Source: an uncultured Pseudomonadales bacterium (GTDB taxonomy: Bacteria; Pseudomonadota; Gammaproteobacteria; Pseudomonadales; CANNCY01). Taken from it: a DNA stretch of 64,000 nucleotides. Positions within the stretch are counted from its first letter, which is position 1. Every line of letters starts with the position of its first letter. The DNA lies in NCBI GenBank assembly GCA_947503335.1, contig CANNCY010000002.1, positions 355,823-419,822 on the forward strand, written 5' to 3'. A program made the position numbers and the translations under genes. The notes beneath the pieces were generated by a model. It was not told where the DNA came from, did not search any database, and worked only from the letters and a program-made list of their open reading frames with translations. Positions 20,836 to 56,476 of the stretch are shown here, one piece after another.

Positions 20836-22956
20836 ATGACCATCAAACCTTTAGCCTTTGCTATCACCGCTGCTATCAGCACACCCAGCCTTGCGTCGTC
20901 GATCGAAGAAATTATCGTCACCGCAAATTTTCGCGATGTAGCCTTAACCGAAACAGCACAGAGCGTAACCGTTGTTGACGCAGCTGCCGCTGACGCCCGT
21001 AACGCTACGCACATCGAATCATTACTGGCCCTTGCCCCGAACATCGACTTTAGCAGCGGCTCGTCGCGCTCGCGCTTTATTCAAGTACGTGGTGTTGGCG
21101 ATCTAGAGCAGTACGGCGAGCCAAAGTACTACCCGTCGGTCGGCGTTGTCGTTGACGGTTTTGAGTTAACCCATGCCGGTGCAGCCACTACCTTTGATAT
21201 GGCCCAAGTAGAAGTACTTCGTGGCCCACAGGGTACCCGCTATGGCGCAAGCGCTCATGCTGGTCTAGTTAAGCTAACGACCAATGCACCGACTGAAGAG
21301 TTTGAAGGCAATGTCACAGTAGGCGTGGGTAACCAAGGCGCTTATCAGGTGGGCCTAGTAACCAGTGGTGCTATTGCAGACCGCGTTAAGGCCCGTGTTG
21401 CAGTGTTCCAAAACACAAGTAATGGCTCTACTTACAATGACTACCTAAAAGACGACACTGCTAACATCGACGAATTTACGTTACGTGCTACTGTTGATTT
21501 TGATGCGAGCGATACTAGCAGCTACCGTTTTCAGGTATTAAATATCGATACCAGCAACGGCTATGACGCGTACAGCTTTGACAATACACACACGACTTAT
21601 AGTGATCAGCCTGGTAAAGACACCAACGAAACCCTTGGTTTTAACCTAAGTGGTAACTGGCAATTAGGTAACGGTGAACTAACCGCAACCCTAACCACTA
21701 GTGAAGCAGACCTTTACTACAGCTACGACGCCGACTGGGCGAGCCAAGACTACTGCGTGCAGTACACCTGCTCGTACGGTATTGACACCGCACAAGAGAT
21801 CTTTGCTCGCACACAAGATCGCGATACTGCCGAAGTTCGCTATGTAGCTGGTGCTGCCGACCTTGGTGCTGGCGATAGTAATTTTGTTATTGGCGCGTAC
21901 TACAACAAGGGTGATGAATCGTTAGATTACGAATACCCGAGCCTGTGGTACGGCGATTACGGTTCGCAAAGCACCTACAAAACCCAGCGCACCGCAATCT
22001 ACGGCGAATACGGCTTAGGCCTAACTGACAAGCTTTCGGTAACCGCAGGTGTACGTGCCGAACGCTTTGAAGAAGACTATAGCGACTCGAACATGGTTCA
22101 GCATAGCGACAGTGATACACTAACCAACGCAGAGATTTCGTTTGGTTACGAGCTAGGTAACGGCCACGTCTATGCAACGCTCGCCGGTGCACAAAAGCCT
22201 GGTGGCACTAACGTTAGTGCAAGCAGCCAATACGGCTGGATGAGCCCCGATTTTCAAACCTTTATGGCGCAAAAACTGCAGTTTGGCGCAGAATCTTTGT
22301 TCAACAAAGAGATCGGCTATAAGGGCGAGTTTATGGGCGACCGTGGTTTAGTGCGTGCTGCGCTGTTTCATACCGACCGCAGCAACGCACAGTTAGAAAA
22401 CTGGATGTGGGACGACGCCGCAGGCCTATGGATTGGCTACCTAGACTCTACCTCTGATGCTACTAGCTACGGTGCCGAACTTGAATTAGATTTTGCCGCT
22501 ACCGAACAGCTTCAACTATCTGCATCGTTAGGCTTGCTTAAAACCAAAGTCGATGCGATCGAAGCTTTCGACCAAGATCTATGGGGTTTCGTAACCAAGT
22601 ACGATCGTGATCAAGCTAAGTCACCTGAATATACCTACCACCTTGGTGCCAACTATCAGTTCACTGACGCGTTAAGTGCTGGTCTAACTATTGAAGGCAA
22701 GGGCAAGAGCTATTTTGGTTACTACCATGACGGCCAGCTAGAGGCGATTGATTTGGTGAACGCCCATATGGCATGGAACCAAGGCAACCTAAACCTAACG
22801 CTATGGGCCCGTAACCTCACTGACGAAACCTATGCGACCCACGCACTGTACTTTGGTGCCGACCCTCGCGACGATTTTGGCGCCTGGGGCAACGCGACCT
22901 ACAAACAGTTAGGTGAGCGCCGTACCTACGGTTTAACTGCGCGTTATCAGTTTTAA
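20836..22956 (+). CDS. TonB-dependent receptor, probably for thiamine or a precursor
   Basis: EEIIVTA, VEVLRGPQGTRYG, RNLTDETY, C-terminal RYQF; directly under the TPP riboswitch. Confidence 0.9.
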   Translation: MTIKPLAFAITAAISTPSLASSIEEIIVTANFRDVALTETAQSVTVVDAAAADARNATHIESLLALAPNIDFSSGSSRSRFIQVRGVGDLEQYGEPKYYPSVGVVVDGFELTHAGAATTFDMAQVEVLRGPQGTRYGASAHAGLVKLTTNAPTEEFEGNVTVGVGNQGAYQVGLVTSGAIADRVKARVAVFQNTSNGSTYNDYLKDDTANIDEFTLRATVDFDASDTSSYRFQVLNIDTSNGYDAYSFDNTHTTYSDQPGKDTNETLGFNLSGNWQLGNGELTATLTTSEADLYYSYDADWASQDYCVQYTCSYGIDTAQEIFARTQDRDTAEVRYVAGAADLGAGDSNFVIGAYYNKGDESLDYEYPSLWYGDYGSQSTYKTQRTAIYGEYGLGLTDKLSVTAGVRAERFEEDYSDSNMVQHSDSDTLTNAEISFGYELGNGHVYATLAGAQKPGGTNVSASSQYGWMSPDFQTFMAQKLQFGAESLFNKEIGYKGEFMGDRGLVRAALFHTDRSNAQLENWMWDDAAGLWIGYLDSTSDATSYGAELELDFAATEQLQLSASLGLLKTKVDAIEAFDQDLWGFVTKYDRDQAKSPEYTYHLGANYQFTDALSAGLTIEGKGKSYFGYYHDGQLEAIDLVNAHMAWNQGNLNLTLWARNLTDETYATHALYFGADPRDDFGAWGNATYKQLGERRTYGLTARYQF

Positions 22957-33964: not shown

Positions 33965-34017
33965 CGCCCACTGTGGTAGCCTGAACACATAATAAAAGTT
34001 AGTAATTGAGACGTACC

Positions 34018-36039
34018 ATGCAAAGCACGCAAATTGATCCTCGCGAATCTCTGCAAAAAGCTATTCAAGCCCTTAAAGGCAAACAGCCACACATTGCCGA
34101 GCAGATCTGTCGAGAGTTCTTAGTACACACGCCATCAAGCATGCCGCACATTCAGCTGCTTAGTCACGCGCTGATTCAAACCGATCGCTACGACGAGGCC
34201 GAGTCGCAACTAGAATTTGCCATTAAGATTGTGCCCGATTACGCAAACCTCTACGAAGATCTTGGCAGCCTATACATGCTTCAGGGTAGAACTGACGAAG
34301 GCATCAGGCTGCTAGAACAAGCAGTACAGATGAACCCTCAGTTATCATCGGCGCACAAAAAACTAGGGACAGCCCTTGCTCAACAGGGCGAGACCGAAGC
34401 TGCAGACGAAGCATTTGAAGCGTATATCGATCAAGACCCTCAGCGAAAGCTGGTGGCTCAGGCGATGGGGCATTGGCGTGCAGGTCGCAACAGCGATGCT
34501 ATCTCTACATTGCGCCAAGTGCTAATGGCCGATAATAACAATGTTGATGCAATGCGTTTTTTGGCGATCATCTACATTAACGACGGCAACAACCTTTACG
34601 ATGCCGAAGCGCTACTTAGACGCGCCACAGAGATTGCGCCCGACTATGTGCAAGCGCTTAACGATTTAGGCTCATTGCTTAACGATAGCCACAAATATGA
34701 TGAAGCCGTATCTGTCTGGAATAGAGTAATTGCCCTTACTCCCGATGACAAACGCGCGTACTCGAGCATTGGTAGCTCACTTACTAGGCTTGGTCGTCTA
34801 GACGAGGCTGTTGCAAACTATAAAAAAGCACTTCAAATCGATGAAGCGTCGCCGCAGATTCACATGGTACTCGCGCACCAATTAAAGACACTGGGTCGAC
34901 AAGAAGAAGCCCTGGTTTCTTATCGCCGCTCTATCGAGCTAAATCCAGGTTTGGGTGAGTCGTATTGGAGTATGGCAAACCTGAAAATCTTCAAGTTCGA
35001 ACCCAACGAAGTTGCGGCCATGGAAGCACAGCTAGAAAAAGAAGATATTTCTAAAGATGCGCGCTTTCACTTATTATTCTCTTTAGGCAAAGCCTATGAA
35101 GATCTAAAAGATTACAAAAAGGCTTGGCACTACTATGACGAAGGCAACAAGATTAGACGCGAGACTGTCAGCTACGACCCCACGCGAAATAGAGTGGAGT
35201 GCGAAACTGACAAGACGTTCTTTAATCAAGCGTTTATCGACCAACATAAAGGAAGTGGGCACGATGCTAAGGATCCCATTTTTATTGTTGGCTTACCTCG
35301 CACAGGCTCAACATTAATTGAACAGATTCTAGCAAGTCACTCTCAGGTAGAAGGCACGTCTGAACTACCTAACATTGGTGCGATTGCCCAATCTACTGCC
35401 AAATTCAGACGTGATAATCTGCAGTATCCTCAAACTCTTGAAAACGCTCAGGGTCGTGACTGGCGCGCATACGGTAGACAATACCTTAAAGAAGTAGCGC
35501 ATCACCGTATCGAGGGCACACCGATTTTTATCGACAAGATGCCGAACAATTTCTTTCGTATTGGCTTCATAAAATTGATTTTGCCAAATGCCAAAATTAT
35601 TAATACTCGTCGCTATCCTCTTGATAGTTTGCTCGGTGCATACAAGCAGTTATTTGCTAGAGGGCAAGACTTTACCTACGACCGCTTCGAGCTTAGCGAA
35701 TACTACCGCGACTATGTTGACCTTATGAATCACTGGCATTCAGTGTTTCCTGGCGAGATCTTAGACGTACATTACGAAGACACTGTTACTGATTTTGAGA
35801 CGCAAGTTAAGCGTATTCTAGAGTTCTGTGATCTACCCTTTGAAGAAAACTGCCTTCGCTTTCATGAGACAAAACGTGCGGTTAAAACAGCATCATCAGA
35901 GCAAGTACGCCAGCCTATCTATCGTGGCGCTCTGGGTCTGTTTAAAAAGTATGACGATGAAGCCATGCAAGAATGGAAAGACGACCTTGAAGATATTATT
36001 GAAGCACTACCTCAATCGGTTAAAGACGCTGTTCAATAA
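34018..36039 (+). CDS. TPR-repeat sulfotransferase family protein
   Basis: Long TPR-like N-terminus, then PIFIVGLPRTGSTLIEQIL (5'-PSB), DKMPNN, RYPLDS, VHYED, TASSEQVRQPIY. Likely start ATG 34018. Confidence 0.92.
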   Translation: MQSTQIDPRESLQKAIQALKGKQPHIAEQICREFLVHTPSSMPHIQLLSHALIQTDRYDEAESQLEFAIKIVPDYANLYEDLGSLYMLQGRTDEGIRLLEQAVQMNPQLSSAHKKLGTALAQQGETEAADEAFEAYIDQDPQRKLVAQAMGHWRAGRNSDAISTLRQVLMADNNNVDAMRFLAIIYINDGNNLYDAEALLRRATEIAPDYVQALNDLGSLLNDSHKYDEAVSVWNRVIALTPDDKRAYSSIGSSLTRLGRLDEAVANYKKALQIDEASPQIHMVLAHQLKTLGRQEEALVSYRRSIELNPGLGESYWSMANLKIFKFEPNEVAAMEAQLEKEDISKDARFHLLFSLGKAYEDLKDYKKAWHYYDEGNKIRRETVSYDPTRNRVECETDKTFFNQAFIDQHKGSGHDAKDPIFIVGLPRTGSTLIEQILASHSQVEGTSELPNIGAIAQSTAKFRRDNLQYPQTLENAQGRDWRAYGRQYLKEVAHHRIEGTPIFIDKMPNNFFRIGFIKLILPNAKIINTRRYPLDSLLGAYKQLFARGQDFTYDRFELSEYYRDYVDLMNHWHSVFPGEILDVHYEDTVTDFETQVKRILEFCDLPFEENCLRFHETKRAVKTASSEQVRQPIYRGALGLFKKYDDEAMQEWKDDLEDIIEALPQSVKDAVQ

Positions 36040-38707: not shown

Positions 38708-38774
38708 TGAAGATTCCTATTGGTTATTATTTTTTGCAGCCTACAACAGATTTGGCGACTGGTCTATCGCCCGC

Positions 38775-38788
38775 TGCAAACGTTTTCA
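38775..38788. promoter_or_regulatory. LacI/GalR-family operator TGCAAACGTTTTCA upstream of sglT
   Basis: Matches TGnAAnCGnTTnCA; lies just downstream of a minus-strand -10-like TACGAT (38797-38792). Confidence 0.7.
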
Positions 38789-38816
38789 TGAATCGTATAC
38801 TAAAACGAATATAAAT

Positions 38817-38850
38817 AAAAAGGGTTCGCAGCAAAACCACGAACCCTTTT
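38817..38850 (-). terminator. Rho-independent terminator after the TonB receptor
   Basis: AAAAGGGTTCG...CGAACCCTTTT inverted repeat with A/T tails. Confidence 0.8.
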
Positions 38851-38867
38851 ATGCGAGCGGCTACGAA

Positions 38868-41510: not shown

Positions 41511-41582
41511 AAAGGGTACTCCCCAATAGTTATTCTTATCTGCGCAGTAATACGTACGGATTTACCGCACGATCAACTCCAC

Positions 41583-41600
41583 TGTAAAGAATACTAAACA
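41583..41600. promoter_or_regulatory. 18-bp operator TGTAAAGAATACTAAACA (PuuR/PauR-like)
   Basis: Same pattern as the two sites upstream of puuC; regulator identity is inferred. Confidence 0.5.
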
Positions 41601-41627
41601 GGGGCTCAACCCTAACAAGCGCTATAT

Positions 41628-42569
41628 TTACGCGGGCTCAGTTGAATTTAATTCATCTGTCAACAATATAAGGCCGGGCGTTTTAAGCAACTGCTGTCGC
41701 AACCATTGATAAAAGGCCGTTATCTTAGGGTCATGACGACGATCGCGACGACAAACAAAATGCCACCCTGCCGACTGCGTTACCTCAAGACCATCAAACA
41801 GTTTTACCAACTCGCCAGAAGCTAGCTGTGACACAACATAGGGATGCATCGCCAAACCAACGCCATGTCCTTGGGCAGCAATGGTTAGTGCGTGATCATA
41901 ACTATCTAACTGTAAACCACCATCAGGGTCAGCATCTTCTACGTCGTTAGCCGCTAACCAGGTTGCCCAATCTTGCTGAGACGGGTACACCTGTAATAGA
42001 GGTAACTGTGACAGCTGTTTTGGATCAGTAATAGGCCCGTGAGCAGCAATAAAATCTGGGCTTGCCACCGGAAACAACTCACAGGCAAATAAAGGCCAAC
42101 ACTCGACATTTGGGTCGTCAGGCGCACCAATCATAATGCAGGCATCGATGGTGGTTTGAGTAAAATCGACATCCCACTGTGCAGTTTGTAGTTGCACGTT
42201 TATATCAGAATGATTTTCTTGAAAATCAGCCAGCCTAGGAATCAACCAACGAATAGCAAGTGTCGAATACAACGACAAATTTAAGGTTGGGCTACGCTCG
42301 GGCGTCAAAATAGACTTAGTCGCTTCGCTTATTTCCCAAAATGCTAGCTGCACCACGGGATAATAATTGCGCCCGGCATCGGTCAACTCAACTGCCCGCG
42401 CGCGACGATGAAATAGCTCGGTACCTAAAAAACCTTCTAAAAGTTTGATCTGATGACTAATGGCAGAATGCGATACGCAAAGCTCATCTGCCGCATCTCT
42501 GAAAGATCCGTGACGAGCCGCTGCTTCAAAGCTTCGCAGGGCATTTAAAGGGGGCAATTTGTGGCGCAT
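41628..42569 (-). CDS. LysR-family regulator, GcvA subfamily
   Basis: LPPLNALRSFEAAARHGSF...SAISHQIKLLE, WLIPRL; likely start ATG 42569. Confidence 0.9.
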   Translation of the reverse strand: MRHKLPPLNALRSFEAAARHGSFRDAADELCVSHSAISHQIKLLEGFLGTELFHRRARAVELTDAGRNYYPVVQLAFWEISEATKSILTPERSPTLNLSLYSTLAIRWLIPRLADFQENHSDINVQLQTAQWDVDFTQTTIDACIMIGAPDDPNVECWPLFACELFPVASPDFIAAHGPITDPKQLSQLPLLQVYPSQQDWATWLAANDVEDADPDGGLQLDSYDHALTIAAQGHGVGLAMHPYVVSQLASGELVKLFDGLEVTQSAGWHFVCRRDRRHDPKITAFYQWLRQQLLKTPGLILLTDELNSTEPA

Positions 42570-42639
42570 ATTATGGTACTTATCGATTGAGCCTTGAGCC
42601 CATTCTGGCACACCTCATTTAGTGCTTTCAATACGATAG

Positions 42640-42686
42640 TTGCGCGGCAAACGTTTTACACTTATAGTGATATCAAATTGATATCA
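42640..42686 (+). promoter_or_regulatory. sigma70 promoter overlapped by a TGATATCA-N3-TGATATCA operator
   Basis: -35 TTGCGC at 42640-45, 17-bp spacer, -10 TATAGT at 42663-68; palindromic octamers at 42668-75 and 42679-86. Confidence 0.75.
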
Positions 42687-42699
42687 TTACGGAGCTATC

Positions 42700-43542
42700 A
42701 TGTACAACTTGATCGAAGAAAAAATAGGCTTTTCGCTAGATGGCTATTTAGTGCTTGTCATCGGTGCCATCGCTATTTACGCACTCGTTTTAATATCAGC
42801 AAGCCCGCTTTGGTTAGGAGTGATACTAGCAATTGTGTTACCCGGTTTCTTTATGATCCAGCCCAACGAAGCTAAGGCACTGATACTGTTTGGCTCTTAC
42901 GTAGGCACCGTTGAGAAAAACGGGCTACGCTGGACCGTTCCATTCTTTATGCGCAAGCGCGTGTCTAAGCGTATTCGTAACTTTGAAAGCTCGAAACTTA
43001 AGGTTAACGATGAGCACGGTAATCCGATCGAGATTGCCGCAGTTGTTGTTTGGCGAGTTCAAAACAGCGCCGATGCGCTATTCTCGGTAGACAACTACGA
43101 GAGCTACGTGGCGATTCAAAGTGAAGCTGCACTTCGAAATCTTGCTACTAGCTTTCCGTACGATCTTCACGAAGGCGACACCATAGCGTTGCGTAGCCAT
43201 CCAACTGAGGTATCAGCCAAGTTGGTCGACGAACTTAAGTCTCGTTTATTGCAAGCGGGTGTTGAAGTACAAGAAGCACGTATCAGCCATCTCGCATATG
43301 CCCCAGAAATTGCCAGCGCAATGCTGCAACGCCAACAGGCATCAGCCGTTATTGCCGCGCGGCAAAAAATCGTCGAGGGCGCAGTGGGCATGGTTGAGCT
43401 AGCAATCAAAAAGCTTAGCGATGATGAAATCATTGAACTAGATGACGAGCGCAAAGCCGCTATGGTAAGCAACTTGTTAGTTGTACTTTGTGGCGAGAAT
43501 AACGCGCAACCCGTCATCAACTCGGGCTCGTTATACACCTAG
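42700..43542 (+). CDS. SPFH (band 7) domain membrane protein
   Basis: Two TMs, [46 protein letters not shown]. Confidence 0.92.
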
Positions 43543-43553
43543 GGATAGTCACT

Positions 43554-43760
43554 ATGAGTAGTAAAAAAAGCTATCCATTGCGCATCAACCCAGACATCCT
43601 CGCCGCCGTACAACGGTGGAGCGAGGATGAGCTACGTAGCACCAATGCACAAATAGAATACCTTCTGCGCGACGCCTTAGTGAAGGCTGGTAGAGTTAAA
43701 CTGGTTGAACCTTCTCAACTAGAGATTGTGAGAATTGACGGCAACGAATCGAAAGAATAG
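43554..43760 (+). CDS. Arc-family ribbon-helix-helix DNA-binding protein
   Basis: [10 protein letters not shown]...[18 protein letters not shown]. Confidence 0.85.
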
Positions 43761-43801
43761 TAGCTAAAGTGAGTACTAGTCTTTTCGAGGAACTGCACAT
43801 C

Positions 43802-44170
43802 ATGAAATGGTTTCTATTAATCTTTATGTCGTCACTTACACTAAACGTAAATGCCATCCAAGATGACATGTATGGCTCTATCGCTATCTCACTATCTACT
43901 GCGCATTATGGTTATTCAATTGATCAGGCATCACAGGGTAAAGCCGAGTCTGTTGCCATGAACGCATGCGAAATTCAATCTAACTACGCCGGCGACTGCA
44001 AGGCCTTAATCTGGTTCAAAAACCAAACCTGCGGCGCTATCGCAGTAAACAAAGATGGCGACTTTGGTGCAGGGTATGGCCCTGGTCATGAGGGTGCCCG
44101 CAATGCCGCTTTAGACCTATGTCATCGCGAAGGCCCAAATTGCGAAGTCATCAAGTCGATGTGCAACTGA
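43802..44170 (+). CDS. DUF4189-like exported Cys-rich protein
   Basis: Signal peptide; YGSIAIS, AMNAC...C...WFKNQTCGAIA...ALDLC...C...C. Confidence 0.8.
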   Translation: MKWFLLIFMSSLTLNVNAIQDDMYGSIAISLSTAHYGYSIDQASQGKAESVAMNACEIQSNYAGDCKALIWFKNQTCGAIAVNKDGDFGAGYGPGHEGARNAALDLCHREGPNCEVIKSMCN

Positions 44171-44238
44171 CATAATTGACACACTTCGTAAAGTAAGTGC
44201 TAGACTGCGCGCATTGATGTTTATGCAAGGGATTCAAT

Positions 44239-44820
44239 ATGTTTAACGCAAAATCGTTAATCACAGCTGCGGGCCTGACGATCGGCTTATTCGCTAGCGC
44301 TAGCACTTTAGCAGAAAAAAACGACGCGCCAGCCGAAGCGGCCATGTGCAACAACCTGCTAGATTACAGCCCACAGAACCTACGCGGCAAAGAATCGACT
44401 AATCTTTGCAGCGCCTTTAAAGGCAAAGTGATTCTAGCAGTTAACACAGCAAGTGAATGTGGTTTCACCCCCCAATTTGAAGGCCTTGAAGCACTCTATC
44501 AGAAATATAAAGACCAAGGCCTAGTGGTGCTTGGGTTCCCTTCGAACGACTTCTTTCAAGAGCATAAAGACTCTGATAAGACCGCTGATGTTTGCTACGT
44601 CAACTATGGTGTGACGTTTCCGGTATTTAAAGAATCAGCTGTTCGTGGCTCAGATGTTAATCCGTTCTTTAAAGAACTAGCCGCCCAAACAGATGTAAAA
44701 CCTAAGTGGAACTTTTATAAATATTTGATTGCTCGCGATGGCTCAGTAATTGATTCTTTTGGCTCGCGCACAGACCCAATGAGCGACACCATCACTAAGG
44801 CTATCGAAGCCCAGCTATAG
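44239..44820 (+). CDS. Glutathione peroxidase family protein (Cys type, exported)
   Basis: VNTASECGFTPQ, LGFPSNDF, KWNFYKYLI. Confidence 0.93.
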   Translation: MFNAKSLITAAGLTIGLFASASTLAEKNDAPAEAAMCNNLLDYSPQNLRGKESTNLCSAFKGKVILAVNTASECGFTPQFEGLEALYQKYKDQGLVVLGFPSNDFFQEHKDSDKTADVCYVNYGVTFPVFKESAVRGSDVNPFFKELAAQTDVKPKWNFYKYLIARDGSVIDSFGSRTDPMSDTITKAIEAQL

Positions 44821-44827
44821 GCTCCTT

Positions 44828-44854
44828 CAAGCCCCTGTTCATTTAAGGGGCTTG
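44828..44854 (+). terminator. Probable terminator after the glutathione peroxidase gene
   Basis: CAAGCCCCT/AGGGGCTTG stem followed by a T-rich tail. Confidence 0.65.
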
Positions 44855-44939
44855 CTACTCTTTACACTCAGTCGATAATGGTAGATTCATATCTATCGTC
44901 CATACTAACACTAGGAATCCATCGATCTGAGTACGCTAT

Positions 44940-46511
44940 TTGAACTTTATTCGACTTGCACTAGGGTCTCCTTTGACCCACCTCGCGCTGCTTGTCGCTA
45001 GCTTCGTGCTTGTCGAGATTAGTATCGAAGCCAAGATTATCGGGCTTGTTGAAGAACAATCCCGACATATCAATCAACGGCTATTAACGCGTATTAGTCA
45101 AGGTAATGCCGATCTAAACAATTTGATCAACGAACCTGATTTGGCAGCGATATTTGACGCCCAGGTGCAATCAGACACGCTTGCAGCCGATAAAATGAAA
45201 TCAGGCCAACTTTACGTGCAAATCAAAGCAATGGTCGTGCAAGCACAGCAAGTCGGGTCTCTGTCAAAGATAGCCCATGCCAGCCCCGACCAGATGATCA
45301 CCGTCACTAAGTTTTATACAACACCGTCTGTTTCACCCAAGTTTTTAGTGTTAATCCACGATATAGGCCGTATCGATTCTTTGATCTGGAGCATTCGTAC
45401 CATATTGATGGTAGCGTTTGCGCTAATTCTATTTATTGGTGCCATCAATTACCGTGCCCTAACCGAGAGCATTAACAAACGAAGGCAACAAGAGCGACAA
45501 GAGCTTGCCCATCTTATCGAGCAGCGCAGCCAATACCTCGACCTCATGATGCAGTTAAGCAGCTTGATGGCAGCATGTAATTCGCTGCAAACTGCTGCCG
45601 AAGTAGTGGCACCGATCGCCACTAAACTCGCCCCAGAATGCCGTGCAGGCTATATCGGGCTAGTTGAACAAGGTCGAGATAGAGTTAGACAAATGGCAAC
45701 CTGGGGGGGGATTGATTTTTCAACAGAAAACTTTGGCCACCAACAATGCTGGGCGCTTGTTAAAGGTCATCATCATGCGTCACATGATAACGATGTAGAC
45801 ATATACTGCGAGCACATATGCGAACGCAATGGCAACCATCTGTGCCTGCCGCTTATCGCTCAAGGCAATACGATTGGTGTATTGAGCATGTTTTTCGATA
45901 CTACTGAGGGGTTAGACTCAAGTAAGTCGATTGCTCTAGCAATGGCAGAGCAAATTGGCTTGGCGCTAGCTAATATGCAGCTACGTGAGCACTTAGAACG
46001 CCAAGCAATCATCGACCCGCTAACAGGGTTATTCAACCGCCGCCACATGATCGACACCCTCGAAACCCTTAATCAACAGATTATCTATGGCGATCATCGG
46101 GCCTGCGTAGTAATGCTAGACGTTGACCACTTCAAATCATTCAATGATTCGTTTGGCCATGATGCAGGTGACCAGCTACTAACCAAGCTAGCTATGGCGC
46201 TGAAACAAAGCTTGCGCGAAGACGATCGCGCCTTTAGATACGGCGGCGAGGAGTTTTGTATCATTTTGCCCAATGCCACACTAGAAGCGGCCGTAGCAGT
46301 GGCCGACAAGATACGTGATCAAATGACGCAGATACAAATTGCCACCAAAGACGGTGCCGCTGGGGCCACCATTTCGGCAGGCATCGCTATGATCGACGAC
46401 GACTGTATGGACACCAACACCGTACTTCAACGGGCCGATCGCGCTCTATATCAAGCCAAGCACAACGGCCGCAATCGTGTTGAGATATTTACTAACCAGC
46501 GCACTGATTAG
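44940..46511 (+). CDS. Membrane diguanylate cyclase (TM-GAF-GGDEF)
   Basis: Two TMs, GAF-like CWAL...CLPL, DPLTGLFNRR, DVDHFK, RYGGEEF, RxxD I-site (REDD). Confidence 0.92.
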   Translation: MNFIRLALGSPLTHLALLVASFVLVEISIEAKIIGLVEEQSRHINQRLLTRISQGNADLNNLINEPDLAAIFDAQVQSDTLAADKMKSGQLYVQIKAMVVQAQQVGSLSKIAHASPDQMITVTKFYTTPSVSPKFLVLIHDIGRIDSLIWSIRTILMVAFALILFIGAINYRALTESINKRRQQERQELAHLIEQRSQYLDLMMQLSSLMAACNSLQTAAEVVAPIATKLAPECRAGYIGLVEQGRDRVRQMATWGGIDFSTENFGHQQCWALVKGHHHASHDNDVDIYCEHICERNGNHLCLPLIAQGNTIGVLSMFFDTTEGLDSSKSIALAMAEQIGLALANMQLREHLERQAIIDPLTGLFNRRHMIDTLETLNQQIIYGDHRACVVMLDVDHFKSFNDSFGHDAGDQLLTKLAMALKQSLREDDRAFRYGGEEFCIILPNATLEAAVAVADKIRDQMTQIQIATKDGAAGATISAGIAMIDDDCMDTNTVLQRADRALYQAKHNGRNRVEIFTNQRTD

Positions 46512-48054
46512 TTACAACGTCTTCAGGCAGCACAAACCATCTTTCTTGGTCTACCCAGCTATCTACTCGCTGATTCTGAGACAACGACTCGGCCAGTTTA
46601 TATGCCCCATCAACAGCAGTGTTAAACGACTCGGCGTGGCCCCATTCTAGCGACTGCCCTAAGGTCACTGATAGCGACTGAGAACCTGTGTACTGCCACA
46701 CCCCAGAACGTTCGTTAAACTGGTAGTGAGCAACCCAATTGATGGCATGCTCTGCAATGTAACTGAGCGCATCAAAGATGTATTGAACCTCGTTTTGGCT
46801 CATCAAAAAATGTAAGTTAAAACGCACCCAACCAGGGCGATAACCCGCCTGCCCGTGACCTGTTTTATGTTCGTAAATCGCCGCTTGTTGTTTAGAAAGG
46901 TTCAACAAATGATGCGCATAGGGCCCTGCACAAGAGCAGCCGCCACGAACTTGAATACCAAACAAATCATTCAATAGCGCCACTACGAAGCCATAATGAA
47001 GCTCAACACCTTGAGCCATTAGCCTAAATGAGAAAATCGGCAATCGAGCTGCTTTGTCTCCACCAAGCAGCTCAAACTGGGGCTTATCTCTAAAAAACGC
47101 GAACGCCTGTTCAGCTAGTTGCTGCTCGCGCTGCTCTATCGCCTGCTCACCCAAATCACTTTTTAACTTAAAAGCGAGCCCTGCTCTAATTGAATCAACA
47201 ATCGCAGGAGTGCCGGCCTCTTCGCGACGTTCAATCGACTCGGTATACCAGTGATTGTTTTGATCCACATAGCGAACGGTGCCGCCGCCACATACCGTAG
47301 GTGCCTGCTCAACGTTTACCAAATCACGCTTAACAATGAGCAAACCAGGTGTAGAAGGGCCACCTACAAACTTATGCGTAGAAATAAATGCCGCGTCGAT
47401 ATCTAAACCCGCAACATCGATATCGATGTAAGGTGCTGCTGCGGCAAAATCAATGCCGAGAATTGCGTCGTGTTGCTGAAACAGTTGGGCGAGTTGCGAC
47501 AGTGGGGTTCTAATACCAGTAACGTTAGAGGCCGCACTAAAGCTACCGATAATTCGCTGCCCGCGGTATTGCTCAAGAAGTGACTGCACCGATGCTAAAC
47601 ATAACGAGCCGTCACTCGCTAATGACGCATTCACAACAGGCACACCCAGCTCTCGCCACACCAACTCGTTCGAATGATGTTCGTACGGCCCCAAGACCAC
47701 CACGGTATCGCTACAGGGCTCGATGTTTAACAAACCCACCCACTTGGTAATGGCCGCCGTTGCCCCAGCGCCGCTAAAGATCACGGCATAACGATCGTCT
47801 GCATTAACTGAATCTGCAATCAGCTGACGTGATTGCTCACGCAATGCCGAGGTATATCGCCCGGTGAATGAGCTCTCGCTATGGGTGTTCGCGTAATAAG
47901 GCAATACCTGCTCTTCGATATACTGTTCTATCGACGACACCGCTCGCCCAGATGCAGTTGCATCAGCATATACCAATGGCTTGTTACCAAAAGGGGTAGG
48001 CACCGCTGCATGATTGCCAATTAATTGCTGTCTAACTTGTGCGAACGTCGTCAT
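46492..48054 (-). CDS. Class V PLP aminotransferase / cysteine desulfurase-like protein
   Basis: YADATASGR, EHHSN, ISTHKFVGGP, RGGCSCAGPY. Confidence 0.88.
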   Translation of the reverse strand: MTTFAQVRQQLIGNHAAVPTPFGNKPLVYADATASGRAVSSIEQYIEEQVLPYYANTHSESSFTGRYTSALREQSRQLIADSVNADDRYAVIFSGAGATAAITKWVGLLNIEPCSDTVVVLGPYEHHSNELVWRELGVPVVNASLASDGSLCLASVQSLLEQYRGQRIIGSFSAASNVTGIRTPLSQLAQLFQQHDAILGIDFAAAAPYIDIDVAGLDIDAAFISTHKFVGGPSTPGLLIVKRDLVNVEQAPTVCGGGTVRYVDQNNHWYTESIERREEAGTPAIVDSIRAGLAFKLKSDLGEQAIEQREQQLAEQAFAFFRDKPQFELLGGDKAARLPIFSFRLMAQGVELHYGFVVALLNDLFGIQVRGGCSCAGPYAHHLLNLSKQQAAIYEHKTGHGQAGYRPGWVRFNLHFLMSQNEVQYIFDALSYIAEHAINWVAHYQFNERSGVWQYTGSQSLSVTLGQSLEWGHAESFNTAVDGAYKLAESLSQNQRVDSWVDQERWFVLPEDVVTNQCAG

Positions 48055-48176
48055 CTATAGCTCCTTAATAGAAGCCATCATGATAATCTCGCCCAAAAGA
48101 GATTTGGTGCCTATATTTTTACAATAAACCCTTTATAGTAAACATTATATCGATTAAATATTAAATCCTGATACAA

Positions 48177-48650
48177 ATGACCATATCTAAACTAGATATC
48201 AATATTCTTGATCTATTACAGCGAGACGCAAGCATTAGTGTGCAAGCAATCGCAGACAAATGCGCCATCTCAAAATCAGCGGCGTGGCGCCGCATTCAGC
48301 AGCTTCAGTCACAAGGCATTATCAAGCAGCAAGTCGCTTTACTAGACGCCGAGAAAATAGGCTTGGCCCTCACGGTTTACATCAGTATTCGCACCAATCA
48401 ACACAACAGTGAGTGGCACCAATGTTTTATTGAAACAATGGATCAAATAGATGAAGTTGTCGAAGTGTGCCGCATGAGTGGCGAGTTAGACTATTTGATC
48501 AAGGCAGTGGTAACCGATATGAAGCACTATGATCGGGTGTACCAGCAAATGATCAAAGCTGACCTAAGCGACGTTAGCGCCAGCTTTGTTATGGAACCAA
48601 TCAAGCAGACAACGGCCCTGCCGCTGTCGCCTGATTTATTGTCGAATTAG
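48177..48650 (+). CDS. Lrp/AsnC-family regulator (DecR-like)
   Basis: LDINILDLLQRDA, AWRRIQQL, RMSGELDY; divergent from the PLP enzyme. Confidence 0.9.
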   Translation: MTISKLDINILDLLQRDASISVQAIADKCAISKSAAWRRIQQLQSQGIIKQQVALLDAEKIGLALTVYISIRTNQHNSEWHQCFIETMDQIDEVVEVCRMSGELDYLIKAVVTDMKHYDRVYQQMIKADLSDVSASFVMEPIKQTTALPLSPDLLSN

Positions 48651-50137
48651 CTAAATTCGATCCAGGTAGTTTTTAGCTCGGTGTAGTCGTCAAAGGCATG
48701 CATCGACTTATCACGGCCGTTGCCCGACTGCTTAAAGCCACCAAATGGTACTGTGATGTCACCGCCAAAGTAGTTGTTGATACCCATAGTACCTACACGC
48801 ACCTTGCGCGCAACACGATGCGCCACGTTGATATTATTTGACCATACCGCGCCAGCCAAACCAAAGATGCTGTCGTTAGCAATTTGAACTGCTTCTTCTT
48901 CGGTCTCGAAGGTAATTACCGACATCACAGGGCCAAAGATCTCTTCTTGCGCAATACGCATATCGTTGGTTACGCCGGTGAAGATGGTTGGTGTGTGGTA
49001 GTAACCACCAGTTTCACTCATCACCTGCTCACCACCGTAAGCCAGGGTTGCACCCTCGCCCTTACCAATAGCTACATAATCAGCAACGGTATTGAACTGG
49101 CCTTCATCAACCATGGGGCCCATCGAAGATTCTGGGTCTAATGGGTTGCCTGGCACCCAACCCTTAGTTGCTTCGATGACCTTAGCAACAAATTCATCAG
49201 CAACTGACTTTTCAACAATGAGTCGTGTACCTGCAGTACAGGTTTGACCACCATTGTAAAAAACAGCCATTGCAGCCATGGTAGCGGCCTTATCAAGATC
49301 AGCGTCAGCGAAGACAATATTGGGGCTCTTACCACCAAGCTCTAAGAAAGTACGCTTTAGGTTGCTCTGACCCGAGTACTCCATAAGCTGCTTTCCTACT
49401 GGTGTTGAACCAGTGAATGTTAGGCCGTCGATGTCCATGTGCGTCGCTAAATGCGAACCTAATGAACCGCCAGGCCCTGGCAATACCTGAAGAACACCAT
49501 CAGGCAAACCCGCTTCTTTTGCTAGCGCAGCAATACGTAACGCAGTCAATGGCGTGTTTGAAGCCGGCTTTAAGATAACCGAGTTACCTGCCGCAATTGA
49601 TGGGGCGAGCTTCCACGCAGTGGTCGATAACGGGAAGTTCCACGGAACAATCGCCGCCACAACACCCAACGGCAAGCGCTGAACTAGCGCTAATGAATCG
49701 TGACCAGTAGGCGAGATTTCTTCATAGATTTTATCGATCGCTTCGCCCGTCCAGCGAATAGTACGAACCGCTGACGGCACATCAACACCAGTTGTGTCGG
49801 CAATTGGCTTACCTACATCTAGGGTTTCTAGTAATGCGATCTCTTCTAGATTTTCTTCTATCAGCTGGGCCCAGCGTACCATTACGGCTTTGCGCTCGGC
49901 GGGTGCTAGATCAGCCCAAGTGCCTGCTTCGAATACTGCCTTAGCAGAAGCAATAGCGCGATCAGCGTCAGCAGGGGTACAGCTAACCACATCAGCTAAT
50001 TTGTCGCCATTGGCTGGGTTAAAGGTTGGGCGAGTTGCGCCAGATTCAGACTCAACGTATTGACCGTCGATAAAGGCACGCGCCTCGATTGAAAGACTGG
50101 CTGCTTTTTCTTGCCAGTACTGAAGAGTATTGCTCAT
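48647..50137 (-). CDS. puuC: Aldehyde dehydrogenase, PuuC/PauC-like
   Basis: LLETLDVGKPI, EAIDKIY, PWNFP, FTGST, SNLKRTFLELGGKSP, GQTCTAG, GNGRDKSMHAFDDYTELKTTWI. Confidence 0.85.
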   Translation of the reverse strand: MSNTLQYWQEKAASLSIEARAFIDGQYVESESGATRPTFNPANGDKLADVVSCTPADADRAIASAKAVFEAGTWADLAPAERKAVMVRWAQLIEENLEEIALLETLDVGKPIADTTGVDVPSAVRTIRWTGEAIDKIYEEISPTGHDSLALVQRLPLGVVAAIVPWNFPLSTTAWKLAPSIAAGNSVILKPASNTPLTALRIAALAKEAGLPDGVLQVLPGPGGSLGSHLATHMDIDGLTFTGSTPVGKQLMEYSGQSNLKRTFLELGGKSPNIVFADADLDKAATMAAMAVFYNGGQTCTAGTRLIVEKSVADEFVAKVIEATKGWVPGNPLDPESSMGPMVDEGQFNTVADYVAIGKGEGATLAYGGEQVMSETGGYYHTPTIFTGVTNDMRIAQEEIFGPVMSVITFETEEEAVQIANDSIFGLAGAVWSNNINVAHRVARKVRVGTMGINNYFGGDITVPFGGFKQSGNGRDKSMHAFDDYTELKTTWIEFS

Positions 50138-50190
50138 GAAGGTACCTACTTTCTGTTATTCGTTTCAAAGCGTTAATTATTTAAAACACA

Positions 50191-50229
50191 TTGTCTACGA
50201 TATCGAACAGAAAGCAAGCACCCTTTGAC
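50191..50229. promoter_or_regulatory. Tandem 18-bp operators upstream of puuC
   Basis: CGTTAATTATTTAAAACA (50191-50208) and TGTCTACGATATCGAACA (50212-50229), 21-bp period. Confidence 0.55.
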
Positions 50230-51321: not shown

Positions 51322-52269
51322 ATGAGCGAATTCAACCAGCCGCTAGGCGGCAATGAGATGCCCCGTTTTGGTGGCCCTTCAACAATGTTTCGTCTGCCAA
51401 GCGACAACGATTACTCTAACTTAGATATCGGTATTGTAGGCATTCCATTAGATATAGGTGCCTCTAATCGATCTGGCACGCGTTATGGGCCTCGTCAAAT
51501 AAGAAGCGAGTCAGTGCTTGTTAGACCCTACGGCATGGCGACTGGCGCGGCGCCCTTTGATTCATTTCAAATCGCTGACACTGGCGACGTTGCGATCAAT
51601 ACATTCAGCCTAGAAAAATCGATCGGCATTATCGAAGCCCACTATGACAAGATCGTAGCCGGTGATATGAAGCCCGTGACATTGGGAGGCGATCATACAG
51701 TCGCTCTACCTATCTTACGAGCCCTCGCCAAAAAGCACGGCCCGATGGCCCTAGTGCACGTAGACGCCCACGCTGATATCAATGATCACATGTTTGGTGA
51801 ACGTATTTGTCACGGCACAATCTTTAGACGCGCAATCGAAGAAGGCTTAATCGAACCCACCTGCATGACGCAAATCGGCCTACGTGCAACCGGGTATGCT
51901 GCAGACGATTTTGACTGGTCTAGGCAGCAGGGCGCTACCGTAGTGACCGCCGAAGAGTGCTGGCACAAATCGTTAGAGCCGCTAATGGCTGAGGTACGCG
52001 CTCGCATTGGTGATCGCCCAGTGTATCTAAGCTTTGACATCGACGGCCTAGATCCTTCTGTGGCACCGGGCACAGGCACGCCTGAGCCGGGTGGTTTAAC
52101 AACGATTCAAGGGCTAGAGATTATTCGAGGGATGTGGGGCACTAATTTAATTGGTGCAGATCTTGTAGAGGTATCGCCACCATACGACACCACCGGTAAT
52201 ACAGCGTTACTTGCTGCTAACCTTGTTTTTGAAATGCTTTGCAGTTTTAAAGGATGCGTGCGCCGATAG
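51322..52269 (+). CDS. speB: Agmatinase / guanidinobutyrase (ureohydrolase)
   Basis: LGGDH, HVDAHAD, SFDIDGLDP, APGTGTPEPGG, DLVEVSPPYD. Confidence 0.9.
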   Translation: MSEFNQPLGGNEMPRFGGPSTMFRLPSDNDYSNLDIGIVGIPLDIGASNRSGTRYGPRQIRSESVLVRPYGMATGAAPFDSFQIADTGDVAINTFSLEKSIGIIEAHYDKIVAGDMKPVTLGGDHTVALPILRALAKKHGPMALVHVDAHADINDHMFGERICHGTIFRRAIEEGLIEPTCMTQIGLRATGYAADDFDWSRQQGATVVTAEECWHKSLEPLMAEVRARIGDRPVYLSFDIDGLDPSVAPGTGTPEPGGLTTIQGLEIIRGMWGTNLIGADLVEVSPPYDTTGNTALLAANLVFEMLCSFKGCVRR

Positions 52270-53199: not shown

Positions 53200-53313
53200 A
53201 TGACCGCTATCGTCGCTTTCACCGCCCTCGCTACCTTTTCGCCAGCCGCTGCTTCAGCCATGGCCGGCGTCACACTCGCCGGCTGTATTATGGCCTTTGG
53301 AGTGATCGTATAA
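53200..53313 (+). CDS. Candidate 37-aa uncharged hydrophobic peptide [37 protein letters not shown]
   Basis: Manual translation (below the ORF-track cut-off); GGAG at 53185-88 upstream of ATG 53200; overlaps the exporter 3' end by 60 nt on the opposite strand. Confidence 0.4.
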
Positions 53314-55302
53314 CCCCTTAGTTTTTCTATAGTGATCAAAGCGAATGGGCGCATCACCATGATGTACCCATATCTGTGTTGCCGGCATTTGCTCTAGCGC
53401 TGTTGCCACAATTGTGCTATTGCGCTCATCTAAGTGGGCGAGGGGCTCGTCAAGCAGCACTATCTTGGGCTGTTTAAAAAGTACACGCGCTATCGCTATA
53501 CGTGATCGTTGACCATCTGACAGTTCAACACTGTCTAATGGCGTATATAACCCCAATGGCAACGATAAAAACCACTGCCCTAAACCAACTCTCTGCAGGC
53601 TTTCGATAATCTTTGTCGCTTCAGAAACACCACATTCACCAAAGTTCTCGATCAACAACCCATCAACTGGGTCTGTAGACGACACCCAACCAATACTCGC
53701 TTCAAGCGCGATCGAACTAATCTGCTTTACGTGAACACCATCAAAATAAATGTCAGTATCGTCGCTCTGATAACCTAACAACGACCTTAAAAAGTAACTT
53801 TTTCCTGAGCCCGATGGCCCACTAAGCAACAACCGTTCTCCTGCTGATAATTCAAAGCTATCGATTACACTTGTCTTTGACGCGCTAAAGGTTACCGACC
53901 CTTTTAACGCTAGCGTAATCTTGTGCTGCTCAATTTCATCTCTTTCAATTAACTCCACGATACGCTCATCGTAAAGCGACATCATGCGCCGCTCTTGATG
54001 ATATTTGACCAGGCCTTCGCTGCGCACCGCTAACATTGCTCGCCAAGCAGCCAGGGCGGCGATCATACCTACAGATATTGTGCCCACATTAAATGCATTA
54101 ACCAATAACAGGTACATACCACCGAGTTCGATTGCTCTAATAGCGCTCACCAATGCCTTAAGGTTCACCAACAATCGCTGGGTAGCGCTTTCTGTTTCTC
54201 GCTGGCGCTCGCACAATGTTGCCCAATGATTATTTAATGATTCGCTACCCTGGTTAAAGCGCTTGGCGATCTTGGCCGCAGCCCATTGCGCAACATGGGT
54301 GCTTAAGTTAGCTTGCGCTGATAAATCTTGGGCTGCACGTCGCCGAACAACATTCATAACAAACGCGCTCAATAACATATGTACACCAATCGCAATTAAG
54401 CTTAATAAAGCAAGCGGCCAATAGTAGTAGGCCATCAACATCAAAGCAGTGACCAAAAAGACAATGTCGGCAAATGCATTAATCGCGCTGTGTATGCGAA
54501 TACGTACTAACTCGCTCAGGGTAGCTATTCGCGACAGTGTTTCACCCACGCTGTGGCCAACTGACAGACCGGTTTGCTCGATCAATTTTGTGTGCAAGAT
54601 TTGGCGCGATGCCAGCTTTGCCCCTAGATGATTTTCTAACACCAGCGTGTCTTTAACGGCGGTGATCACCGCGATAAGCATCCCCAACAAGAAGAACGCC
54701 CCTATACCAACATAGGTTTCGTTGCGCGCTGACGAAACCGCCAAATGGTCGATCACCCATTGCATTTGCATCGGGGTCATCACTAACAGCATTTGAGCTA
54801 CTAGTGTTAACAGCAGAATCAGCAATGCAACTGGCCGGTTAATGGGTACGGGTATTTTATTGCGCGTATCTTTAGCCACATGAGCTGGTGAGGCCACCAA
54901 TAGGCTGGTTAATGCCACACCGGTAAAACAACGATTAACGTCGTCTTTAGTCACCTCTACATCACCCTGTGCAGGGTCGTATACAAGCCAGTTACCATTT
55001 TTCATAACCCTAATCAGCACAACAAAGTGATTGTGCTGCCAATGCACAATTGCTGGCACGTGTTGCTTTAAAAAGTGCTCGGGTTCGGCCCTTACCGCAG
55101 TACTAGACACGCCCATTTGCGCTAACAATTGACGCAACTGCCCCATCGTGAGGGGCTTAACTGCCCAACTAAAACGTCGCCGCATCTCGAGCAGACTCGC
55201 TTGTGATGCTCGCCCTTTAGTCAACGCCCACGTGGCACAGCACAGACCGCATTCAAAGGGGTGCCCTTGACGCATAGTTGCGCCCAACGAACTATTCGCC
55301 AT
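53254..55302 (-). CDS. Peptidase C39-containing ABC exporter (CvaB/RaxB-like)
   Basis: QGHPFECG (Cys), HWQHNHFVV (His), YDPA (Asp); TM domain; [18 protein letters not shown]. Confidence 0.9.
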
Positions 55303-56476
55303 GACCGGTCATTCCTTTAGGTAGCAATAAGTAACTACCCAATGACATCGACTTGTCTTGAAGAGACACCACACCTTGGTCGCCGATAGCGATTGGGTCT
55401 GGCGGCACGCCGGTGAACGTGAATAGCGCTCGAAACCCCTGAGCACTATCAAGGGCCGTCGTATCAGATTGGTGTAAATCAACGTTGAATGCACCATGAT
55501 AAAGCCACGGCAGGTGGTTCAACTGTACCGATGCCCCACGCTTAATCAGTTCTAAGTCATCTGCGTCACCAATGCGCGTTTCAAAAGCAAGCTCGGCACC
55601 TATGGGCGTTATCAAAGCGATTGCTCGCCCAGCGGCGGGCTGCACACTTGATTTGTATAAATATACTCGCCCGCCAATCGGCGCCCGAAGCCAGTGTGAG
55701 GCACTTAAACGGTTACTGTTACTATCTAACTCTAACATCGCTAACTCTTGCTCGCCTTTCGCCTTGATTAACGCTAGCTGTTGTACCAGAAGCTGGTACT
55801 CTTCATCTGCTTTACGATGCTGCTCTGTTAATTGCGTCTTTTGCTGTAGCAATAGGCTTAGTTGTTGCATCGCCTCAATCTGTTGTACCTGGGCCTGCTC
55901 AGCTGCAGCTACTGATAGCTGTTTAGCCTCCACTAGGAGATCAATTGACGCCTTGCGCTTGGTTAAGCGCTTAGACAACGCGGTAGATTCTTTGATTAGC
56001 TGGCTCAGACTATCTTTGCGTTTTAACAGATTGTCTTGATGCCTTTGTAGCTGACTAAGCGCGTGCTCGATTCGCTTTTTTTCTATCGTAATACTTTGCT
56101 TTTGGTTGTCGATTTGTAAATCAATTAATTCGGCACGGGCGCGATGAAGCTCAGGCTGATTTAACGACTGCTGCCACGCGATCTTAGCAATCGGCTGCCC
56201 TTGTGATACCGACTGCCCGTCGTTAACTGCCCACTCTATCAAATAGGCCTGATGGGGCATCGTAATGCTTATAGGCGAAGGCACGGTGGTTACCTGACCT
56301 GTAAACCGCTTTATCGGGGCGTACTGCACCAACGCCAAGAGTGCGATGATGCCTATCACTAGTACAATCAGTAGTTGCGACCATCTAATCAGTACGTGAT
56401 CACGCGGCTTTAACTCACCATAGCGCTGTACTAACTGAAAAGATTCGGGCCTAAAGAGAGATGAAGTGTTGCTCAT
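55292..56476 (-). CDS. HlyD-family membrane fusion protein (CvaA/RaxA-like)
   Basis: SLFRPE N-terminus, single [15 protein letters not shown] lipoyl half-motif, coiled coil, LRAPIGG. Confidence 0.85.

Follow-up and report, generated by a model that had tools for sequence, protein, structure and literature searches.

The window described here is a stretch of 64,000 nucleotides (nt) from an uncultured Pseudomonadales bacterium (C2:355823-419822 of a 3.22-Mb genome with 47% GC, labelled G000). Its minus strand carries genes for a large TonB-dependent receptor, for a LysR-family regulator directly upstream of the receptor and for a PuuC/PauC-like aminoaldehyde dehydrogenase. An initial annotation identified three similar 18-mers, one upstream of the receptor (site 1) and two upstream of the dehydrogenase gene (sites 2 and 3), and proposed that they are a shared operator which places both genes in a polyamine regulon, with the receptor serving TonB-dependent polyamine uptake. 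The motif does mark a PuuR/PauR-type polyamine-catabolism regulon, of which the dehydrogenase gene is a probable member. Site 1, by contrast, is most likely not a working operator, and the receptor appears to import galactosides or glycans rather than polyamines.

Three related sites in the window

All three 18-mers are found in the window (Table 1). Site 1 lies exactly where it had been placed; the LysR-family gene, encoded by that same strand, ends 28 nt upstream of it. The other two are present as well, but the positions first given to sites 2 and 3 (50191-50208 and 50212-50229) were 20 nt too high. Their starts are spaced 21 nt apart, and both sit within the 99 nt that separate the dehydrogenase gene from a DUF3501 gene, which are both on the minus strand. 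The gapless alignment of the three sites holds, with nine invariant columns; their description as palindromes holds less well, since 6, 4 and 4 of the nine base pairs are complementary.

Taken alone, the triple is within the range of chance. At least nine invariant columns were obtained in 46 of 200 mononucleotide shuffles of the two intergenic regions, and the window shows no enrichment of TGT-N12-ACA as a frame by itself (15 observed versus 17.7 expected). That the consensus matches the window three times is a circular result, the consensus having been derived from those sites.

The operator, its probable regulator and its targets

The case for the motif comes from the rest of the genome. 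Scanned genome-wide, the consensus of the initial annotation gives 12 matches, eight of them intergenic. Block shuffles gave about 1.9 matches, and 150 column-scrambled patterns gave means of 2.15 in total and 0.39 in intergenic DNA, with maxima of 8 and 3. An origin of the motif entirely in chance was dropped once this enrichment had been seen. A refined pattern, TGTNWANNATWTYNAACA, was derived from nine strong sites outside the window; it matches the genome exactly at seven places, all seven intergenic, and nowhere in 2.88 Mb of coding DNA (60 scrambles of the pattern averaged 0.07 intergenic and 0.12 coding matches). When one mismatch is allowed, five further matches are intergenic against 1.9 expected, and six are coding against 7.5 expected.

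Site 3 is one of the seven exact matches, site 1 has one mismatch, and site 2, read by eye, has two. A symmetric position weight matrix (PWM) built from eight sites outside the window scores the strong sites at 21–25 bits, site 1 at 13.7, site 3 at 13.6 and site 2 at 12.1 bits. At 12 bits or more it finds 17 intergenic and 24 coding matches, and under a per-segment Markov null 2.2 intergenic matches reach 14 bits or more.

The initial annotation had proposed a genome scan for hits at puuA- and puuB-type genes, and such hits are found. Five new intergenic matches to the consensus lie at recognisable genes: between fadBA and a glutamine synthetase (GS) homologue, which is PuuA-like (40% identity to the E. 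coli protein); 33 nt ahead of the gene for an FAD oxidase of the DAO family (DAO1); upstream of an AptA-type omega-aminotransferase, which is followed by methylmalonate-semialdehyde dehydrogenase (MMSDH); upstream of an APC basic amino acid/polyamine antiporter, which is followed by dimethylargininase; and, as a strong match, between purA and an SPFH (band 7)/NfeD operon (C3:160825-160842, locus L004). A rescan with the PWM added a second DAO-family oxidase (DAO2), whose site is 17 nt from the start codon, and a one-mismatch site between two operons (C7:35971-35988, locus L016). DAO1 and DAO2 are 40% and 39% identical to E. coli PuuB. The seven exact sites belong to the GS-like gene, DAO1, DAO2, the window's aldehyde dehydrogenase (ALDH) gene (site 3), aptA, the APC antiporter and the SPFH operon, and the accepted sites lie 17–116 nt from the starts of their open reading frames (ORFs). 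The motif is thus a real operator of the PuuR/PauR type, which the earlier consensus caught by luck.

Several further observations were made at these loci. One of the two operons at L016 encodes a GbcA-like Rieske oxygenase and a 616-residue FAD oxidoreductase; the products of the second are a FabK-like oxidoreductase, a glutathione-dependent formaldehyde dehydrogenase and an S-formylglutathione hydrolase. The site between them may place a demethylating amine pathway under a PuuR-type repressor. Upstream of a PuuD-like gamma-glutamyl-GABA hydrolase homologue there are two weak sites (C1:1240340 and 1240361; region 1240340-1240378) with the same 21-nt spacing as sites 2 and 3. In the intergenic region between fadB and the GS-like gene (C1:890020-890050) a second palindrome, AAACAGCTGTTT, flanked by TTTGAAACA, adjoins the PuuR-type site. 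We take this palindrome to resemble PsrA-type sites, and it may be the site of a fatty-acid regulator for fadBA. A second large ORF, divergent from aptA, was considered as a possible receptor and ruled out, as it encodes a CHAT-TPR protein. Among the upstream regions of G000, no operator is found at the LysR gene, a third PuuB-like gene, a second PuuA-like gene or a second ALDH gene.

The dehydrogenase of the window is the best match to PuuC in the genome, being 51% identical to the E. coli protein over 99% of its length. It scores 629 bits against the curated PuuC equivalog model NF007352, below the cut-off of 850, and is hence called PuuC-like and not PuuC. A 72%-identical orthologue in each of three related genomes (G102, G054 and G143) also has a strong site. 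The placing of the puuC-like gene in a polyamine regulon by the initial annotation is therefore credible: the gene is a probable member because of the exact site 3, the recurring tandem with a weak site and the strong site at the orthologue. A scan for sigma-70 promoters upstream of the dehydrogenase gene found no promoter-like site. The agmatinase-family gene that had been noted nearby is confirmed (Table 1); its upstream region holds no operator, the best PWM score there being -4.6 bits.

A candidate for the binding protein is encoded elsewhere in the genome. It is an XRE-type protein with a cupin domain, the genome's best cupin match, and its gene is convergent with the PuuA-like target, at which a strong site lies. 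Its identity to E. coli PuuR is 37% across 178 of its 182 residues, and it matches the PuuR model NF007408 with an E value of 9e-49 (165 bits, under the equivalog cut-off of 211). Homologues at E values of 1e-55 or below are found in 30 of 300 other genomes of the order. Among 40 relatives searched, G000 is the sole member of its own family.

Both regulator and operator are conserved in a sister family, here called f55. Its regulator is 62–64% identical (searched in G102, G054 and G143), and the four f55 genomes scored all contain exact matches to the refined pattern, two to four in each. The f55 sites lie at puuR itself, at aptA (in tandem), at the puuC orthologue, and between or beside GS-like/fadB, DAO1/cmoA and purA/SPFH. 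In G102, G054 and G143 an exact site is found about 50 nt upstream of puuR. When one mismatch is allowed, G102 has nine distinct sites, and at eight of them the adjoining genes are homologous to puu genes or to targets in G000; this set includes two aptA sites 43 nt apart and a second ALDH gene. The site between purA and the SPFH/NfeD operon is kept in f55 (G102 C1:227999, locus L069). In ten genomes of other families with regulators 54–65% identical, the pattern was found once in total, and this operator variant is therefore confined to the family of G000 and to f55.

Table 1. Coordinates of the sites and genes discussed (window positions unless a contig is given)
Feature	Position	Strand	Basis or remark
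Site 1, TGTAAAGAATACTAAACA	41583-41600	-	near-match to operator, 72 nt upstream of receptor ATG 41510
Site 2, CGTTAATTATTTAAAACA	50171-50188	-	weak auxiliary site, 34 nt upstream of dehydrogenase start 50137
Site 3, TGTCTACGATATCGAACA (+ strand letters)	50192-50209	-	probable PuuR-type operator, 55 nt upstream of puuC-like gene
PuuC/PauC-like aminoaldehyde dehydrogenase, 496 aa	48647-50137	-	Pfam Aldedh E 6e-173
Agmatinase-family gene	51322-52269	+	TIGR01230 208 bits, above cut-off 174
TonB-dependent receptor, 880 aa	38868-41510	-	Plug PF07715 E 5.8e-14, barrel PF00593 E 2.8e-18
Terminator-like hairpin after receptor gene	38818-38850	-	15-pair stem, then T-run
Sodium:solute symporter (SSS family), 521 aa	37142-38707	-	PF00474 E 1.7e-68; NF007790 370 bits, under cut-off 401
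Conserved protein, 317 aa	36109-37062	-	without Pfam or NCBIfam match
TPR and sulfotransferase protein, convergent with cluster	34006-36039	+	PF13469 E 5.9e-50
CE2-type carbohydrate esterase, 833 aa	31463-33964	+	CE2_N and GDSL domains
GH2 beta-galactosidase, 1060 aa	25547-28729	-	five GH2/LacZ domains
LysR-family (GcvA-like) regulator, directly upstream of receptor	41628-42611	-	HTH_1, LysR_substrate; NF008352 295 bits, above 288
Palindrome TGAATTTAATTCA (T-N11-A)	41643-41655		133 nt upstream of receptor, inside LysR ORF 3' end
PuuR-like XRE-cupin regulator, 182 aa	C1:891620-892168 (outside window)		HTH_3 E 8.8e-14, Cupin_2 E 3.1e-21
TonB receptor paralogue, 821 aa	C3:10998		one-mismatch site C3:10956-10973, 25 nt upstream
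TonB receptor, 789 aa	C4:56853		one-mismatch site C4:56764-56781, 72 nt upstream

The receptor and its gene cluster

The receptor gene belongs to a group of genes that lie within 16 kb of one another and encode a GH2 beta-galactosidase, a CE2-type esterase, a sulfotransferase, a conserved protein of 317 residues, a symporter, the receptor and the LysR-family regulator. One terminator-like hairpin stands after the receptor gene and another after the symporter gene, and the receptor is probably transcribed alone. Closer orthologues of the receptor for footprinting were looked for and not found: a scan of metagenomes gave no relative, and the best match in a set of 5.8 billion proteins has 48% identity.

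Seven related genomes of the order contain receptor homologues 39–48% identical. In six of six homologues tested, the two proteins are reciprocal best matches, with scores of 552–748 bits versus 353–412 bits for the next receptor. The loci of these relatives resemble one another in content: by a reading of the gene tables by eye, a LacZ-like GH2 enzyme of about 1060 residues is next to the receptor in six of the seven, the 317-residue protein is found in six, the TPR-sulfotransferase in five and an SSS symporter in three. The symporters of the G102, G054 and G245 clusters are 68.5–70% identical to that of the window, and the TPR-sulfotransferase has syntenic homologues of 49–72% identity in five relatives. 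The 317-residue protein is syntenic, with 60–64% identity in five relatives and 37% in a sixth; in a protein atlas it falls in unnamed clusters only, the nearest named lead being NHL at 0.93. The receptors of G102 and G088 likewise have CE2 esterases at their flanks, the G088 cluster has a LysR protein 52% identical to that of the window, and GH30 and an MFS_2 sugar transporter are found near receptors in relatives. The GH2 enzyme of the window is 38% identical to the G102 enzyme whose gene lies between receptor and symporter; it adjoins genes for a cupin protein and a short-chain dehydrogenase. Because the receptor is syntenic with this cluster of GH2, CE2, SSS symporter and sulfotransferase, its substrate is most likely a galactoside-containing glycan.

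The receptor family has a palindrome of its own. The LysR-box-like element TGAAT-N3-ATTCA, found upstream of the receptor within the end of the LysR gene, also precedes the orthologous receptor genes of G102, G054, G143 and G245 (for example at about 8590-8605 of locus L040; also L042, L043 and L045) and upstream of a paralogous receptor in G000 (C4:240293-240305). Five such elements are present in the genome. It is probably the true local operator of the receptor family.

The composition of the receptor had been cited as suited to the binding of cationic amines. Its richness in Trp, Tyr and Asp is borne out: at 19.2% it ranks top of the 33 TonB receptors of the genome (mean 15.0%, standard deviation 1.7). 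As evidence for an amine substrate, however, it does not discriminate, since the same residues make up 17.1–19.1% of six of the seven homologues from sugar clusters and 15.6% of the seventh. The richness goes with the receptor family and suits sugar binding as well as amine binding.

The surrounding region is rich in receptors, with at least three of the 33 lying in the window. The two others are at 12886-14913 and 20836-22956, with an OmpR-type two-component pair at 18438-20656. At 53254-56476 the window also contains a C39-peptidase ABC exporter of the NHLP/bacteriocin type, together with a weak HlyD-like adaptor; these genes are concerned with peptide export and are unrelated to the subject here.

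Alternative readings and wider context

The account that best fits these observations, and which we consider reasonably likely as a whole, is a PuuR/PauR-type regulon that includes the puuC-like gene, with site 1 as a near-match and the receptor as part of a glycan-uptake cluster. By analogy with PuuR and PauR, a dimer of the XRE-cupin protein would act as a repressor by occupying an AT-rich palindrome of 18 bp (approximately TGTwwAwwATATTnrAACA) at promoters of the gamma-glutamylation pathway, and would leave the operator once a polyamine binds the cupin domain. The regulon would comprise the PuuA-like enzyme, two PuuB-like oxidases, the omega-aminotransferase/MMSDH pair, the antiporter operon, the SPFH/NfeD operon and the PuuC-like dehydrogenase. 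At the last of these the exact site 3 would be accompanied by the weak partner site 2, two helical turns off. Site 1 would most likely be a chance near-match, or one related to a promoter or terminator. The receptor would act in a conserved glycan-uptake cluster, probably for beta-galactosides, under its own conserved upstream palindrome.

One alternative is that the motif belongs to a different regulator, such as one of the TyrR/PhhR type. The 18-bp boxes of TyrR and PhhR share the TGT-N12-ACA frame, the f55 site TGTAAAATATATTTTACA fits a TyrR-type box, and genes of the fadBA and mmsA type adjoin some of the sites. TyrR itself was rejected as the binding protein for lack of a full-length homologue: all nine genome matches to E. 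coli TyrR start at query residue 182 or later, and so cover the AAA+ part only, as generic sigma-54 activator domains with no N-terminal sensor. In addition, no aromatic amino acid gene is annotated beside the seven exact sites, an f55 site lies just upstream of puuR, both lineages have a site at the gene adjacent to puuR, and sequence from the E. coli puuA-puuD region agrees with the motif in its right half. A different regulator is therefore highly improbable, and the PuuR-like protein is the preferred candidate.

Two further alternatives concern site 1. In the reading of the initial annotation, site 1 is a working operator, polyamines derepress the receptor, and the receptor imports a polyamine or a polyamine conjugate; in the other, the repressor does bind site 1 while the receptor still moves a glycan, the site being a case of lineage-specific cross-regulation or a weak decoy. 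Both draw on the same evidence for binding. Site 1 has a single mismatch to the 13-position pattern, and its distance from the start codon is inside the accepted range. The mismatch is a C at position 12, however, a central position at which all nine defining sites have T, and position 7, symmetric to it, is non-canonical too. The PWM score of site 1 falls where matches in coding DNA are equally common. A weak terminator-like hairpin follows the LysR gene (41614-41599), and site 1 overlaps its T-rich tail. A sigma-70 promoter scan of the receptor strand from 41511 to 41627 found no promoter-like site.

Conservation speaks against site 1 as well. The initial annotation had named conservation upstream of receptor orthologues as a means of judging its proposal, a comparison which is informative for G102, G054 and G143 only, where regulator and motif are shared; G088, G245 and G213 are without a close homologue of the regulator. 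The site is absent from the receptor orthologues of all three informative genomes. Across the seven related receptor loci there is no motif match of 12 bits or more near the receptor (a 13.0-bit match at L043 is 2.5 kb off) and no TGT-N12-ACA within 260 nt upstream. A tblastn search with the 33 receptors found, with one exception, no homologue within 1.5 kb of the nine G102 sites or in ten G143 loci, the G143 part having left out loci L072, L076, L082 and L084 and three sites without a locus. That one homologue is a receptor of the iron type, next to the ALDH loci (L057 in G102, L066 in G143). This receptor, which stands beside the puuC orthologue in G102, G054 and G143, was rejected as a link to the regulon, as a thioredoxin-like gene lies between it and the site; its start is Fur-box-like by eye only.

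A number of observations nevertheless weigh against the account preferred here. The symmetric PWM scores neither site 2 nor site 3 above site 1, and no site is found upstream of puuR in G000 (best score -4.9 bits). The outer half-sites of site 1 are intact (TGTAAA ... TAAACA) and its distance from the receptor start is plausible. A first PWM, built from five sites, ranked it about eighth among distinct genome sites with 19.4 bits, although this matrix descended from the earlier consensus and is thus not independent. Three of the five intergenic one-mismatch matches to the refined pattern are upstream of TonB receptors, where receptor-upstream DNA makes up 2.5% of intergenic DNA (8,589 of 340,306 bases). 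With scrambled patterns eight of 304 matches were receptor-upstream and none of 150 patterns reached three; with half-permuted patterns, in which one half and the centre were kept, the figures were 27 of 379 (7.1%) and none of 119. A real link between the motif and receptor promoters may accordingly exist, although the count was made post hoc, and it is explained in part by the resemblance of one motif half on the other strand (TWNACA) to a -35 hexamer. The 789-residue receptor, one of the other two with such a match, follows nagB-nagA-nagP at a sugar locus, and its match overlaps a promoter, TTGACA-17-TATAAG. In the window, the space that separates receptor and symporter holds no GH2 gene, being a 160-nt gap (38708-38867) with a strong terminator. 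The receptor has diverged further from its orthologues than the symporter has, and with the adjacent GH2 gene lost there is room for a new specificity; the conservation test, moreover, concerns one genus.

Weighing these points, we regard binding of any kind at site 1 as rather doubtful. That the repressor binds there while the receptor transports a glycan is unlikely: the conserved synteny agrees with the transport, but the site is weak and unconserved, and it is not obvious why polyamines should control the uptake of galactosides. That site 1 is a working operator of a polyamine-induced receptor is quite unlikely in view of the grey-zone, unconserved site, the synteny with sugar genes and the composition shared with sugar-cluster homologues, and the place claimed for the receptor in the polyamine regulon is not upheld. 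TonB-dependent transport of polyamines by the receptor is very unlikely, and the same can be said of a wider scheme in which a PuuR-type repressor recruited TonB receptors (the 880-residue protein and perhaps the 821-residue one) for energised, high-affinity uptake of polyamines or their conjugates at the nanomolar levels of seawater. A PuuR/PauR-type regulon, with the receptor in a separate glycan-uptake cluster, is the reading that we retain.

Regulons of this kind are already known in E. coli and Pseudomonas. In E. coli, PuuR represses the puu operons, which are induced by putrescine, according to a review (PMC9397018). The regulator described here is like PuuR in its XRE-type helix-turn-helix and cupin domains, in its full-length similarity and in its targets, which are homologues of PuuA, PuuB and PuuC. 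The E. coli puuA-puuD intergenic region holds AAAAATATTGAACA, a match to the motif here in its right half, and the half-site ATATTGAACA is present in it; published PuuR footprints reportedly fall in this same region. The left half of the operator differs, being TGT here and TTG in the E. coli instance. Unlike E. coli PuuR, the regulator here scores under the equivalog cut-off and is without a site at its own promoter in G000, and its targets are scattered over at least seven loci, whereas puuAP and puuDRCBE form one cluster in E. coli.

In P. aeruginosa, the homologous autoregulated repressor PauR (PA5301) acts at a palindromic operator on 29 genes at 12 locations, and the targets named in the available part of the source include pauA-, pauB- and pauC-type genes, aminotransferases and an amino acid/polyamine transporter (PMC7901475). 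The dispersed regulon here matches that of PauR in its layout, as far as this is described there. The PauR targets named in that part of the source (PMC7901475) do not include the SPFH/NfeD operon, which is a conserved target in G000 and f55. The receptor, for its part, is like the TonB receptors of glycan loci in marine Gammaproteobacteria, with Plug and barrel domains in 880 residues and synteny with GH2, CE2, SSS and sulfotransferase genes in six to seven genomes; it is unlike those of its relatives in that the GH2 gene is 10 kb away.

Full-text literature searches returned no title or abstract describing a TonB-dependent polyamine receptor. Were the proposal for this receptor true, it would be the first of its kind, and the route by which polyamines at trace levels cross the outer membrane is uncharacterised. 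What is new here is a clean reconstruction of such a regulon, supported by genome comparison, in a family with a single genome in the collection, with a defined 18-bp operator and at least seven target loci. Its unexpected conserved targets are the SPFH/NfeD membrane-scaffold operon and, probably, the locus for a Rieske oxygenase and formaldehyde detoxification. The regulon helps to annotate the turnover of polyamines in marine bacteria.

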